Positions 51,733-56,471 of a stretch of DNA of 56,471 bases are shown here, piece after piece. Numbering within the stretch: position 1 is the stretch's first letter; every line of letters begins with the position of its first letter. The notes beneath the pieces were generated by a model, which made no database searches, had not been told where the DNA came from, and worked only from the letters and a program-made list of their open reading frames with translations. Position numbers and translations under genes: made by a program. This DNA comes from a virus. Taxonomy: Duplodnaviria; Caudoviricetes. The stretch covers positions 1 to 56,471 of IMG/VR virus record IMGVR_UViG_3300027851_000033; one strand, 5' to 3'.

Positions 51733-51999
51733 ATGCAAGAACTACTGATGATGTACGACCCGGCAACCGGAATGCAAAAGCCCTACCCGAGCCACGCCGA
51801 GCAATGGCGGAAGTTTCACGGCGAGATGGCATGGCTGTTCAATCCTTGGACAGGCACAAGGCGGCACGCTCTTGATGTTGGTAGCGACACCTTTGGGCGT
51901 GGTATTCGCATAGAGGATTGCTTAGAGCGCGCGGCAGTGATGAGCCAAGCGCAGGGATCAAGCCAACAAATACGCGGAGGAATTCTCCGTGACGCATAA
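51733..51999 (+). CDS. Cassette A gene (88 aa)
   Basis: GGAG RBS; TAA stop lies in the next core site. Confidence 0.7.
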   Translation: MQELLMMYDPATGMQKPYPSHAEQWRKFHGEMAWLFNPWTGTRRHALDVGSDTFGRGIRIEDCLERAAVMSQAQGSSQQIRGGILRDA

Positions 52000-52075
52000 C
52001 GTAGAGCTAAGGGGCCGAGCCGCAGGCGAAGGTCCCGTGGAGCGAAGCGGAACGAACTTGAGCGCCGGGTTAGGC
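51994..52075 (-). mobile_element. attC2 (82 bp)
   Basis: Minus: GCCTAAC-CCGGC-GCTCAAGT...CCTTAGC-TCTAC-GTTATGC. Confidence 0.9.
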
Positions 52076-52098
52076 GGCGCAGACATTGGAGACAGCAA

Positions 52099-52350
52099 AT
52101 GAGACAACCTCACGAATTGATGGCAGATGACTATTGCGGACCCTCGAAAGTGATTAACTTGGGCCAGATTCAAAACCGCGATGGGTTCAGATTCATCGGT
52201 ATCGACAAGCACGGCAAAGAGCATTTTTGCATTGTCCGCAAGGGTGACGGCGGATCGTTTTACATGAACAGCAACACGGCGCTGTTTGAGGATTTGTGCG
52301 GATGGCTGCCCGATCCTGATGCGCCGACTTTTGGAGGTAGCGAAACATGA
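52099..52350 (+). CDS. Cassette B gene 1 (83 aa)
   Basis: GGAG RBS. Confidence 0.7.
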   Translation: MRQPHELMADDYCGPSKVINLGQIQNRDGFRFIGIDKHGKEHFCIVRKGDGGSFYMNSNTALFEDLCGWLPDPDAPTFGGSET

Positions 52351-52556
52351 GCATTCACGTTTGCAAATGCACTCACAACGGGCGCGAGGAATACCACCTG
52401 CGTTACCCCGGAATGACCGAAGCGGAGGCGCGAGAACTGGCCGACAGAATCAACGGCGGATGGCTCCGGCCACCAGAGAAGCCGAAGGGCGGATTGGCCG
52501 AAGCGGTCAAGATAGCAAGGGGCGGGGATGCACCGATACCGTTCAAGAGATCGTGA
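52347..52556 (+). CDS. Cassette B gene 2 (69 aa)
   Basis: GGAGG RBS and ATGA overlap. Confidence 0.65.
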   Translation: MSIHVCKCTHNGREEYHLRYPGMTEAEARELADRINGGWLRPPEKPKGGLAEAVKIARGGDAPIPFKRS

Positions 52557-52557
52557 C

Positions 52558-52635
52558 CCCTAACGCCGGAGTTAAGGCGGCTGCCGAAGGCAGTCCGGCG
52601 ACCGAAGGGAGCGAACCTTGAACGACTTGTTATGC
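52558..52635 (-). mobile_element. attC3 (78 bp)
   Basis: Minus: GCATAAC-AAGTC-GTTCAAGG...CCTTAAC-TCCGGC-GTTAGGG. Confidence 0.9.
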
Positions 52636-52755
52636 GCTGACGGTTACTGGTGCGTGGTTTGTGGGCGATACCTGCCCGACGATGACGGGGTGGTTGTTCA
52701 CGACGACGTGCCACACCCGGAGATGACTTTCGACGAAGAGGAAAGGCCGCAATGA
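52618..52755 (+). CDS. Cassette C gene 1 (45 aa, MNDLLCADGYWCVVCGRYLPDDDG...), start inside attC3
   Basis: GGGAG-6nt-TTG inside the attC; CxxC motif; ATGA overlap with the next gene. Confidence 0.5.
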   Translation: MNDLLCADGYWCVVCGRYLPDDDGVVVHDDVPHPEMTFDEEERPQ

Positions 52756-52946
52756 GCGAGAACGGAATTACCCACTACTGCCTCGGCAACGGGGAGTTGA
52801 AGTGCGACGGCTGCGGGCAGGAAAAGAACTGGCAGACGTTGAACCAGATGCCCGACGCGCTGCGGAAGACGCTGCAAGCGCAGGCGCAACGGATCGACGA
52901 CACCGACTGCATCCTGTCCGGGCGCCCGTGGTATGTGGGCGCATAA
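52752..52946 (+). CDS. Cassette C gene 2 (64 aa, Cys-rich)
   Basis: TAA stop lies in the next core site. Confidence 0.65.
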   Translation: MSENGITHYCLGNGELKCDGCGQEKNWQTLNQMPDALRKTLQAQAQRIDDTDCILSGRPWYVGA

Positions 52947-52996
52947 CGCTTGAATTCAGCGGCGGCGAAGCCGTCCGCTGGAATGATTAGTTGGGC
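52941..52996 (-). mobile_element. attC4 (56 bp)
   Basis: Minus: GCCCAAC-TAATC-ATTCCAGC-GGACGGCTTCGCCGCC-GCTGAAT-TCAAGC-GTTATGC. Confidence 0.92.
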
Positions 52997-53021
52997 CTCG
53001 ACGGCCCGGAAAGGAAACGAC

Positions 53022-53381
53022 ATGAGCTTGCACGATGAAATTCGGAGTGCCCAGATACGAGCGGGCGAGGACGCGGTGATTCGCAACCTGGAACGCTTGG
53101 GATTCGCGCCATCTGCGCCGCAAACGGAAAGCCGACTGGAAGTGCTGGAGCGCGAACACCAAGAGTTTTTCGAGCGCTGGCATGCCGAGCGACGCAAACG
53201 CGAAGAGCTGGAGGATGCGATACGCGACATATTCCCGGCAGCGCACCGGCTGGCACTGGAGTTGGAATGCCTGCTGCTCGACACCAAGGACACAGCAGCG
53301 GTAAGCAAGTGGTGGGACTCGGCAAACGAAGCGCTGGAACAGTGGCGCGAGTTCTGCCGGGAAGAGACGCACAACGCTTAG
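53022..53381 (+). CDS. Cassette D gene (119 aa, coiled-coil)
   Basis: AAGGA RBS before MSLHDE; stop lies inside attC5. Confidence 0.7.
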   Translation: MSLHDEIRSAQIRAGEDAVIRNLERLGFAPSAPQTESRLEVLEREHQEFFERWHAERRKREELEDAIRDIFPAAHRLALELECLLLDTKDTAAVSKWWDSANEALEQWREFCREETHNA

Positions 53382-53431
53382 GTGAGGCGCGGGCGGCTTT
53401 TCGCCCGTCGCGCTCGACCGATGGGTTAGGG
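53369..53431 (-). mobile_element. attC5 (63 bp)
   Basis: Minus: CCCTAAC-CCATC-GGTCGAGC...CCTCACC-TAAGC-GTTGTGC. Confidence 0.88.
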
Positions 53432-53436
53432 GTGCG

Positions 53437-55074: not shown

Positions 55075-55110
55075 GGCGTCTTACCAGCGCCGACTTTTGA
55101 AAGGGTGGTG

Positions 55111-55248
55111 ATGAAGCCATTTTTGATAGCTGTGCTGTTGTTCACTTCCGGCTTCGCCGTGCTGCTGTTTTTTATACTCTGGTGGGAACGCGGATTTGAT
55201 GGTGCATGGGCGACCTTTGAGCGATTCGCAGAGGATGTATTGAGATGA
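55111..55248 (+). CDS. Cassette I gene (45 aa, single TM)
   Basis: MKPFLIAVLLFTSGFAVLLFFILWW. Confidence 0.6.
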   Translation: MKPFLIAVLLFTSGFAVLLFFILWWERGFDGAWATFERFAEDVLR

Positions 55249-55249
55249 C

Positions 55250-55307
55250 GCCGAACGCCGAAATCACCGGCCGCCGGTAGGCGGTCCGGTGGATTGTGGA
55301 GTTAGGT
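55250..55307 (-). mobile_element. attC10 (58 bp)
   Basis: Minus: ACCTAAC-TCCAC-AATCCACC...GGTGATT-TCGGC-GTTCGGC. Confidence 0.88.
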
Positions 55308-55313
55308 TGCACG

Positions 55314-55367
55314 TTGATTGCTGTAACACAAATAATGCTTGACATGGCTTGATTGATGTATTACAGT
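55314..55367 (+). promoter_or_regulatory. Cassette J sigma70 promoter (TTGACA-17-TACAGT) with direct repeats TTGATTGnTGTAnnACA 35 bp apart
   Basis: -35 at 55339-55344, -10 at 55362-55367; repeats start at 55314 and 55349. Confidence 0.75.
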
Positions 55368-55415
55368 AACAACCATGCGATGCACGTTGCAGCGCAGACA
55401 ACCAAGGAGCCGAAA

Positions 55416-55715
55416 ATGCAAAACCTGACCGCCGAACAAATGATGCAGCGCCCGGAAGTGCTCGCGTACCTGAATGAGTTGGCGGCCGATATTGCGGCAC
55501 ATGGCGGCCTTGAAGGAAAGACGATGGAGCAAGCCGTACAAGAGGCGCACAACCGCCGCCAGTTGTTCGCGGCAGAGATGGTGTCCGGTGAGACGCGCCG
55601 CGCAAAGATGGCACGGAAGGCTATTTGCACGTCTGTTTGGATTGATGTGACCGTGCAGCACTCGAAGGAAAAAATGGTGCAGGCGTGCGAATGGATCGAG
55701 GCGGGGCGCGCATGA
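55416..55715 (+). CDS. Cassette J gene 1 (99 aa)
   Basis: AAGGAG RBS before MQNLTAEQ. Confidence 0.7.
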   Translation: MQNLTAEQMMQRPEVLAYLNELAADIAAHGGLEGKTMEQAVQEAHNRRQLFAAEMVSGETRRAKMARKAICTSVWIDVTVQHSKEKMVQACEWIEAGRA

Positions 55716-55897
55716 AGGCCAAGGCTCCACACGGAGGCCCAGGAAGGGGTCAAGGCCGCAAGCCACTGCCGGACGAGGAGCGCACCGTTGTTGTGACGGT
55801 GCGACTCACCCAAGCGCGGAGGGACAAGCTGCGGCGCTTGGGCGCGCACTGGCTTGCAAAGGCGGTTGATCGGGCGAAAGAGCCTGATGCAACCTAA
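55712..55897 (+). CDS. Cassette J gene 2, RHH-like paralog of 54210..54386
   Basis: HGGPGRGQGRKP...VTVRLT...LRRLG..WL; TAA stop in the core site. Confidence 0.75.
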   Translation: MKAKAPHGGPGRGQGRKPLPDEERTVVVTVRLTQARRDKLRRLGAHWLAKAVDRAKEPDAT

Positions 55898-55960
55898 CGC
55901 ATAGGTAAGCGGCCTTCGCCGGTCTTATGGCGAAGGTCGCGCTTGACCGCCGGGTTGGGC
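55892..55960 (-). mobile_element. attC11 (69 bp)
   Basis: Minus: GCCCAAC-CCGGC-GGTCAAGC...GCTTACC-TATGC-GTTAGGT. Confidence 0.92.
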
Positions 55961-55997
55961 GGCGTATCACCAGCACCGACTTTTGAAAGGGAACGAT

Positions 55998-56312
55998 ATG
56001 GCAACACAGAAGGAAGCAACGCTGCGGCTCTACACGGCCCTGAACGCACCGGCCAAAGCAGGCAGGGTGTGGGTGCAGTACGAGCGCAAAACCATTGACG
56101 CGGCACTGGATGTGCTGAAGCAGTTGATGGTGGCGCAGGGCTACGAATTCCGCCCGGCTGACGCGCTGCCTGCGGAGCGCGAGTGCTGCGGGACTTTCCC
56201 CGGCTCCAAACACCGGAGCACATGCGCGGCCAAGACGCCCAACGCAGAAGTGAGCCGATCTGCGCCGCTTTTGGCGCAGGTCGGCTCGACTGACGGGTTA
56301 GAGCGCGGTTGA
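55998..56312 (+). CDS. Cassette K gene, reads through attC12
   Basis: MATQKEATL...; CCGT...H..TC motif. Confidence 0.65.
   Translation: MATQKEATLRLYTALNAPAKAGRVWVQYERKTIDAALDVLKQLMVAQGYEFRPADALPAERECCGTFPGSKHRSTCAAKTPNAEVSRSAPLLAQVGSTDGLERG
56237..56303 (-). mobile_element. attC12 (67 bp)
   Basis: Minus: CTCTAAC-CCGTC-AGTCGAGC...GCTCACT-TCTGC-GTTGGGC. Confidence 0.92.
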
Positions 56313-56326
56313 CACGGAGAAAGAAC

Positions 56327-56471
56327 ATGACACCGGAAGAAGCTGACAAGGCACAGAACTGGCTCGGCATGGACGGAGCCACGGCTTGGCACTTGATAGA
56401 CCGGCACGCCGATAACTGGAATGAGGTGGGCGAGTTGATGAATTCCTGGCTACGGGCGAACGTCCTTGCAG
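56327..56471 (+). CDS. Cassette L gene, 5' part (MTPEEADKAQNWLGMDG...), continues at position 1
   Basis: GGAG RBS; open to the end of the window. Confidence 0.7.
   Translation, partial: MTPEEADKAQNWLGMDGATAWHLIDRHADNWNEVGELMNSWLRANVLA

Follow-up and report, generated by a model that had tools for sequence, protein, structure and literature searches.

How does a phage that encodes no integron integrase come to carry a long array of integron-type gene cassettes, and why do the genes of these cassettes all point in what is, for an integron, the reverse direction? The question is raised by the terminal part of IMGVR_UViG_3300027851_000033, an entire virus record of 56,471 bases (the window, meaning the whole stretch of DNA that was analysed), which is the whole record of a temperate, P22-like phage and is listed as 'linear' with a CheckV completeness of 100%. 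From about 51.4 kb to the record end it consists of a run of small plus-strand open reading frames (ORFs) with hairpin repeats between them. We report that this array is one of integron-type cassettes, with an attI-like core, 12 attC sites and 12 cassettes, in a phage without an integron integrase. The reading that we favour, with a probability of about 0.72, is that of a phage-borne cassette array on which a host integron integrase (IntI) acts in trans, in which cassettes with genes on the attC bottom strand have been selected and which belongs to a cassette pool of the phages' own.

Are the hairpin repeats attC sites? A covariance model, R1, was built from an alignment of the 12 plus-strand repeats, read by eye (RYYYAAC ... 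GTTRRRY), and used to search both strands of the whole window. It returned exactly 12 sites, all on the plus strand, with scores of 43-69 bits that follow from the construction of the model, and nothing else matched:

51576-51652, plus strand: attC A, 61.1 bits (also alignment and consensus fold); distal array end, overlapping the 3' end of ORF 51390-51647
51992-52078, plus strand: attC B, 58.6 bits
52556-52638, plus strand: attC C, 50.5 bits
52939-52999, plus strand: attC D, 43.1 bits; common to viral locus L022 along with its downstream ORF
53367-53434, plus strand: attC E, 51.7 bits
53695-53778, plus strand: attC F, 52 bits
54379-54452, plus strand: attC G, 65.1 bits
54705-54781, plus strand: attC H, 69 bits
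55002-55077, plus strand: attC I, 61.3 bits
55248-55310, plus strand: attC J, 50.8 bits
55890-55963, plus strand: attC K, 65.9 bits
56235-56306, plus strand: attC L, 54.4 bits

The AAC/GTT triplets of the R boxes are invariant and paired in all 12 sites, both in the alignment and in the RNAalifold consensus, which also contains an L-box stem and, on the plus strand, an invariant unpaired G-A in the 3' arm; the spacers measure 5-6 nt and the sites 61-87 nt. The repeats thus have the R-box palindrome, the L-box stem with its extrahelical base and, under the covariance model, the likeness to validated sites that define attC. Twelve of them within 4.8 kb, on one strand and with no intI gene, form a cluster of attC sites lacking an integron integrase (CALIN). 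The preliminary description of this DNA, which flagged 51733-56471 and so began just to the right of the start of site A (51576), had proposed 12 attC sites of one polarity with a consistent L''/L' asymmetry, and the alignment, the consensus fold and R1 all confirm it. A scan of the window against Rfam gave 0 families and is uninformative, since Rfam has no family for such sites. Within the array, 55031-55105 (the 3' half of site I and some 35 nt of leader, which reach the ribosome-binding site) and 55917-55991, the matching stretch after site K, show about 78% identity, and the ORFs that follow the two segments differ.

The array begins on the left with a full attC and closes on the right with an R box alone, which is the geometry of an attI-type end. 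This right end is reached across the circular join of the record, where it lies beside the only tyrosine recombinase gene of the phage:

118-139, plus strand: lone R box (118-125) and attI-like core TAACGnnAAGTAGACnCC (122-139), written as the bottom strand; proximal array end, identified by sequence
149-1147, minus strand: phage tyrosine integrase (Pfam Phage_integrase, 2.5e-15; phrog_1, 4.5e-43), with its stop codon 9 nt from the attI-like core

The last ORF leaves the window at 56471 and resumes in frame at 1-134, and because its two halves form one contiguous ORF in viral locus L017, which has 3 additional nucleotides at the junction 56471/1, the record ends join. In L004, the closest relative, the array terminates with the same attI-like motif. 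A scan of bacterial genomes with the motif TAACGnnAAGTAGACnCC returned at least 120 stretches; the carriers, among the matches listed (a limit that holds for all intI-linked loci below), are mostly Gallionellaceae, Methylophilaceae, Thiobacillus, Nitrotoga, Rhodocyclaceae, Methylococcales and Rhodanobacter. In 32 of these bacterial loci intI genes or remnants were found beside the motif by tblastn with IntI1 of R100, the full-length ones being 53-59% identical to IntI1, and intI, in the orientation of the motif, begins some 100-480 nt (mostly 100-200) downstream of it. Since the motif sits between the attC arrays and intI in bacteria, it is the core of the attI site of this integron clade. Judged by sequence, the attI core and the attC sites of the window belong to the family of the chromosomal integrons of Betaproteobacteria and some Gammaproteobacteria. 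Two viral loci carry additional or displaced cores: L014 has the motif three times, two copies being in tandem (3665-3742; 4787-4804), and L028 has it once (4867-4884), in the middle of a 14-attC array and with another attC directly after it; these could be fused arrays or attI-derived pseudo-cassettes.

No intI gene is present in the window: TIGR02249 has 0 matches in the whole 56-kb record, and the sole tyrosine recombinase is the phrog_1 phage integrase. Could this enzyme, rather than a host IntI, be the one that acts on the core and on the attC sites? As a tyrosine recombinase it shows weak Xer-like matches, and its stop codon lies next to the core; but it is an ordinary phrog_1 phage integrase that matches neither TIGR02249 nor, by tblastn, IntI1, it has no relative in the other array-bearing loci that were fetched (tblastn, with a pattern scan likewise finding none), and in other phages NinG, terminase or lysis genes come after the motif instead. 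We regard this explanation as very improbable.

Which strand of the attC sites does the plus strand of the window represent? In the bottom strand of attC, as described by Nivina et al. 2016 (PMC5027507), R' carries 5'-RYYYAAC, extrahelical bases lie near L'' and the strand is G/purine-rich. Because, in the window sites, the unpaired G is in the 3' arm on plus and the GC skew of that strand is positive (G > C) in 12 of 12 cases, in keeping with this description, the plus strand is the bottom strand of attC. The attC of aadA1 (plasmid R100, In2) has its extra base in the 5' arm of the coding, or top, strand, and R1 matches it on the bottom strand only (37.8 bits, E 4e-6), with no match on the top strand at E values up to 1. 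Furthermore, all 103 R1 matches in the 32 intI-linked bacterial loci are on the intI-sense strand and upstream of the motif; these loci are canonical integrons seen on their bottom strand, with cassettes, attI and then intI reading away, and it follows that plus in the window is the bottom strand.

The boundaries of exchanged cassettes lead to the same orientation. The attI-adjacent cassette of L009 recurs as an internal cassette in L020, with 90% identity over 368 nt. The two align from within the left R box of the upstream attC to a point in the following left R box, beyond which L009 runs into its attI core and L020 into another attC. With two successive left R boxes as its limits, the mobile unit comprises an attC together with the ORF downstream of it on the plus strand. 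L014 and L017 also have a cassette in common, and there homology stops at +10 of the downstream attC. Every attC, and the attI core as well, is thus shown to have its bottom strand on the window's plus strand, and the earlier proposal that the attC top strand is on minus at all 12 sites is borne out by the aadA1 match, the GC skew, the attI/intI geometry and the cassette boundaries. That proposal had been left to a strand call by covariance model; here the call was run in reverse, a model of the plus strand finding the canonical aadA1 site on its bottom strand alone.

On which strand, then, are the genes? The 12 cassettes, numbered from the distal end and called from the ORF list and the G+C content of second codon positions (GC2), are as follows:

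51733-51999, plus strand: c1, 88 aa (ORF list, GC2); TAA stop inside the next R box
52099-52556, plus strand: c2, two overlapping ORFs (52099-52350 and 52347-52556); the second about 77% DNA-identical to a cassette ORF of L026
52618-52946, plus strand: c3, two ORFs (52618-52755 and 52752-52946; ORF list, GC2)
53022-53381, plus strand: c4, 119 aa; 95% DNA-identical to a cassette of viral locus L022
53461-53724, plus strand: c5, 87 aa (ORF list, GC2); ends within site F
53801-54386, plus strand: c6, a sigma-70-like promoter (53801-53829, promoter scan) and coupled ORFs 53861-54058, 54058-54213 and 54210-54386; ORF1 matches phrog_34498 (E 1.7e-25)
54462-54776, plus strand: c7, 104 aa (ORF list, GC2); reads through site H
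54812-55009, plus strand: c8, 65 aa (ORF list, GC2)
55111-55248, plus strand: c9, 45 aa, hydrophobic (ORF list, GC2)
55339-55897, plus strand: c10, paralogue of c6, with a promoter-like site (55339-55367) and ORFs 55416-55715 and 55712-55897 (ORF list, promoter scan)
55998-56312, plus strand: c11, 104 aa (ORF list, GC2); reads through site L
56327-56471, continuing in frame at 1-134, plus strand: c12; TAG stop at 132-134, inside the attI-like core; contiguous in L017

A ribosome-binding site of the GGAG/AGGA type, read by eye, stands upstream of each plus-strand ORF, and several of the ORFs show translational coupling. The plus-strand ORFs have a pooled GC2 of 0.46, minus-strand ORFs of at least 80 aa one of 0.58 and the known genes of the window one of 0.43. 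In the plus frame of the L009/L020 pair, 2, 3 and 23 substitutions fall at codon positions 1, 2 and 3; the counts for five of six cassette pairs were uninformative, the pairs being too similar or the antisense frame sharing third positions. Homologues of the first ORF of c6 are annotated, as same-strand genes with no attC near them, in Burkholderia phage Mica and Ralstonia phage RSM3, and this ORF alone was matched, in 5 records, when the array was compared by blastn with cultured phages. The first ORF of c10 has relatives at 42-45% identity in two viral contigs, with no attC nearby. Of 16 cassette ORFs, none reached the curated level of a Pfam family and 1 matched PHROGs. A crude longest-ORF rule, applied to the 12 window cassettes, called 7 '+', 3 ambiguous and 2 '-', the two '-' calls being the multi-ORF, promoter-bearing c6 and c10, where the long antisense ORFs extend over attC sites and, with a GC2 of 0.60, are not gene-like. 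The cassette genes of the window are on the plus strand: ribosome-binding sites, Pfam and PHROG matches, codon-position substitutions and GC2 agree with the previous view that every credible ORF is on plus.

Because the ORFs and the attC bottom strand are both on plus, the genes run towards attI, the reverse of bacterial cassettes. A canonical cassette has its ORF on the top strand, directed towards its own attC and driven by the cassette promoter Pc; the window cassettes are not of this kind, and neither a Pc nor an intI region is found in the window.

Some further features of the cassettes may be recorded. The ORFs 51390-51647, 54462-54776 and 55998-56312 each read through a whole attC, their last 20 or so residues being encoded by the hairpin. 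Relatives of c7 and c11 obtained in protein searches were rejected, their matches being confined to these attC-encoded C-terminal tails; they are not true homologues. A promoter-like site of the form TTGACA-17-TACA(C/G)T is found in both c6 and c10, as is a small final ORF with a common GGPGRGQGRKP motif; neither cassette matched a Pfam family.

Is the window a solitary case? The attI-core motif retrieved 30 viral loci, 24 of which carry R1 matches (89 in all), always on the motif strand and, in 20 of the 24, all upstream of the motif. Several of the related records are complete genomes with terminal repeats, and the arrays adjoin NinG, terminase, lysozyme or endolysin genes. Twelve further viral contigs were found through the attC-encoded peptide tails, and 10 of these have R1 matches, mostly in dense arrays. 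Plus-strand ORFs of the related phage arrays match Pfam N6_N4_Mtase (N6_N4 DNA methylase), DNA_methylase (C5) and HNH_3 (HNH endonuclease), so that orphan DNA methylases and an HNH endonuclease are among the cargo of the phages. Two of these loci have unusual neighbourhoods: in L027 (2133-4057) the array is immediately followed by a gene for the terminase large subunit with an intein splicing domain (Pfam 1.3e-09), and in L032, a provirus record, a DDE-type transposase (HTH_38, rve; 769-1605, minus strand) lies between the attC and the attI core.

The same crude longest-ORF rule was applied to phage intervals and to those of the intI-linked bacterial arrays, for which up to 8 kb next to attI was taken in each of the 32 loci:

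Phage arrays (two near-duplicates dropped): 23 loci, 93 intervals; 56 '+', 13 '-', 24 ambiguous
Bacterial intI-linked arrays: 32 loci, 102 intervals; 16 '+', 70 '-', 16 ambiguous

Without the window the phage counts are 49 '+', 11 '-' and 21 ambiguous, and they differ from the bacterial ones with a Fisher p of about 1.5e-14. Motif loci of bacterial genomes with no intI in the 8 kb fetched are mostly '-', and the few that are '+' (L082, L118, L151, L131) include contigs resembling phage loci. Cassettes are shared by 19 phage-phage and 7 bacterium-bacterium pairs of loci, in all cases in the same relative orientation; tblastx of the phage arrays (about 52 kb) against the intI-linked bacterial arrays (about 75 kb) gave 0 high-scoring segment pairs at 1e-6 and, at 1e-3, short attC-derived pairs only. 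A match of 26-31 aa on opposite strands, between cassettes of L015 and L038 and one of bacterial L045, was rejected as generic methyltransferase motifs. In one bacterial locus, L059 (a Gammaproteobacteria metagenome-assembled genome), the region 117-6148 holds 12 evenly spaced R1 matches, many of them about 125 nt long, which suggests a distinct attC subfamily.

This comparison bears on the idea of the array as a fragment of a host chromosomal integron, brought in by imprecise excision or by mis-assembly. The attI core and the attC family are indeed those of bacterial integrons, and the record is listed in IMG/VR as 'linear'. Yet capture of a host array, in either orientation, keeps the host relation of ORF to attC ('-' 70 vs 16) and therefore cannot explain the phage pattern, in which the window genes are '+'; there is no intI or intI remnant in the window; the same layout recurs beside phage genes in 24 other viral loci, including the complete genomes with terminal repeats; and the ORF that spans the record ends is contiguous in L017. 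We find a host piece barely credible. Nor can recombination of the top strand explain the pattern, because attC polarity agrees with the strand of the attI motif in 24 of 24 viral loci with R1 matches. The contrast between phage '+' and bacterial '-', together with the sharing of cassettes, supports the earlier suggestion of a phage-adapted pool as against random captures. The distribution of homologues on which that suggestion depended came out accordingly, with cassettes common among phages, none held in common with the intI-linked bacterial arrays, and the bacterial genes mostly in the opposite orientation.

Are these cassettes still exchanged? Parts of the window's own array recur elsewhere, c4 in L022 (95%), the second ORF of c2 in L026 and c12 in L017, and four loci (L017, L019, L021 and L022) are identical from the attI core onward with different cassettes in front. 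In DNA runs of 8 studies other than the probable source the array's sampled words were present with shares of 0.38-0.71, and in six metatranscriptome runs with shares of 0.10-0.14 that have no bearing on expression. Contigs of four DNA runs cover cassette-sized pieces and often stop at left R boxes, and one X5 contig joins 52943 to 53700, R box to R box, a weak observation, being at contig level and with short sides. Other joints of that kind, and array segments that no contig of runs X2-X5 covers, are given no weight. A gene related to the RNA polymerase alpha C-terminal domain offers a possible snapshot of cassette recruitment:

50917-51393, plus strand: alpha C-terminal domain-like gene, free-standing in the window (Pfam 1.8e-06)
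L004, 1957-2433: a 91%-identical gene flanked by attC sites, and so a cassette there

Other relatives of this gene, in L005-L007, have no attC sites.

Such signs of turnover have to be weighed against the view that the array is a relic, or has another role altogether, with hairpins that are no longer IntI substrates and now have mainly a structural role in RNA or DNA (in the processing or stability of transcripts, in attenuation, or as hotspots of homologous recombination). A hairpin precedes every ORF on the transcribed strand, several ORFs read through attC sites, attC sequences common to unrelated cassettes could drive homologous exchange, and both the reduction of the window attI to its core and the lack of IntI in the window and in 26 related viral records would fit. 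Against this, the attC-specific features (AAC/GTT, the unpaired G of the 3' arm, the spacers) are kept in 12 of 12 sites, which score like bona fide attC; units of cassette size change position with breakpoints in R boxes; the first cassette varies behind an identical attI flank; and one contig joins R box to R box. A relic seems to us unlikely, and we prefer a phage-borne array that still exchanges its cassettes.

How would such an array work? In the window the Pfam matches on the minus strand include a phage capsid protein, a P22-type portal and terminase, and those on the plus strand an S24 (CI/LexA-like) repressor, RecT, YqaJ exonuclease and the single-stranded DNA-binding protein SSB. The following gene comes before the array:

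50424-50633: helix-turn-helix protein of the excisionase/CII type, downstream of the RecT-YqaJ-SSB genes (profile matches)

A single ORF of 4615 aa occupies 1424-15271 on the minus strand, that of the structural genes. RecT, YqaJ, SSB and the cassettes are all on plus, the cassettes being co-directional with the recT-exo-ssb early operon. On the plus strand of the array a terminator scan found a single weak terminator-like site, inside an ORF, and a promoter scan found the two promoter-like sites of c6 and c10 (53801 and 55339), with none for most cassettes. The preliminary description had the array read from the phage early promoter; the co-directional geometry on plus stands, and transcription itself we only infer. 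In the mechanism that we propose, a host IntI would insert and excise cassettes in trans at the phage attI and attC sites; transcription would enter from the early promoter, at the array end far from attI, with two cassettes adding promoters of their own; selection would retain only those cassettes that have their gene on the bottom strand, that is, the expressed ones; and phages would in this way hold an orientation-coded cassette pool separate from that of the host.

Several results weigh against this mechanism. None of the 26 viral records searched (the 24 loci with attC sites, L010 and L029) has an IntI above the TIGR02249 cut-off, 3 of them giving weak generic recombinase matches, so that recombination must come in trans. 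The attI of the window is reduced to its core and the further GGTGTATA-type repeats of bacterial attI regions are absent, for which reason cassettes may insert there with low efficiency. Some breaks in homology are located at the right-hand attC end or inside hairpins, which site-specific exchange does not predict, and which may reflect attC sequences common to different cassettes. The crude strand rule leaves 24 of the 93 phage intervals ambiguous and places 13 on the opposite strand. Finally, the absence of cassettes shared between phages and bacteria is weak evidence, because the bacterial sample is small and attI-proximal.

What would follow if the mechanism holds? Integrons are seen as bacterial devices for which orientation is decisive. 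Should a whole phage family, with the attI core and attC type of the host retained, store its genes reversed, phages would be regular users of host integron integrases and not accidental carriers. There would be a second pool of cassette genes, probably rich in anti-defence and host-takeover functions, which surveys expecting forward ORFs would mis-annotate. The origin of cassettes would become testable, since one phage gene is found in both states, as a free-standing gene and inside a cassette. Expression of intI is under LexA control, as part of the SOS response, and prophage induction would be predicted to be linked to cassette shuffling by this route. A wider proposal, possible but tentative, is that the phages of integron-bearing Beta- and Gammaproteobacteria run a parallel 'antisense' cassette economy, with the attI core of the host, a borrowed, SOS-induced IntI, genes on the bottom strand, orientation as a two-way insulator and recruitment of phage genes. 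Phage cassettes parked in a host integron would then be silent from Pc, host cassettes, anti-phage defence systems included, would be silent on landing in a phage, and ordinary phage genes would be recruited into the pool, as the alpha C-terminal domain-like gene of the window and of L004 may exemplify.

How does the array compare with known systems? With the chromosomal integrons of Nitrosomonadales, Rhodocyclaceae, Methylococcales and Rhodanobacter (L042-L161) it shares the attI core, the attC family (R1 scores of 20-55 bits) and the attC-to-attI polarity. These integrons differ from it in having intI about 100-480 nt beyond the motif, longer attI regions and ORFs that mostly run away from attI (70 '-', 16 '+'), and no cassette is shared with the phages sampled. 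The bottom strand of the aadA1 attC (R100, In2) is like the window sites in sequence and structure, with AACG, an L box, an unpaired G in the 3' arm and GTTAG, but in aadA1 a top-strand gene comes before its attC, whereas in the window the gene is on the bottom strand and the attC precedes it. Reverse-oriented cassettes do occur in sedentary chromosomal integrons, for example toxin-antitoxin cassettes with promoters of their own. These resemble the window cassettes in having an ORF opposite to the usual direction and, in the case of c6 and c10, a promoter of their own; they are, however, a minority in forward arrays (16 of 86 called intervals here), whereas the phage array is wholly reversed and most of its cassettes are promoterless in the scan. 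For bacterial arrays the selectivity for the bottom strand is stated in PMC5027507 to ensure that a promoterless gene faces away from Pc.

The nearest precedent lies in phages themselves. The main text of Qi et al. 2023 (PMC9892861) describes 3 integrons, one In0 and 17 CALINs among 10,705 phage genomes, each CALIN with at least 2 predicted attC sites and the illustrated arrays being small (two to four attC) and typically oriented, divergent or mosaic; IntI1 recombined the bottom strands of phage attC sites, and the phage cassettes include methyltransferases. As in these CALINs, the window has an attC array without intI inside a phage genome, and its family has orphan DNA methylases as cargo. 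Reversal of the ORFs relative to attC is not mentioned in the main-text sections of that paper, whose supplementary tables may hold relevant arrays, and literature searches, covering main texts and leaving supplements aside, returned no account of phage arrays that have an attI and whose cassettes are systematically reversed. The window differs from the CALINs described in that main text by its 12 sites, by the conserved attI core of a host integron clade, by a family that spans dozens of uncultured phages and by the systematic reversal of its ORFs. Phage CALINs as such are thus already known, and it is the reversal of a whole array, joined to the attI core of a host clade, that appears to be new.

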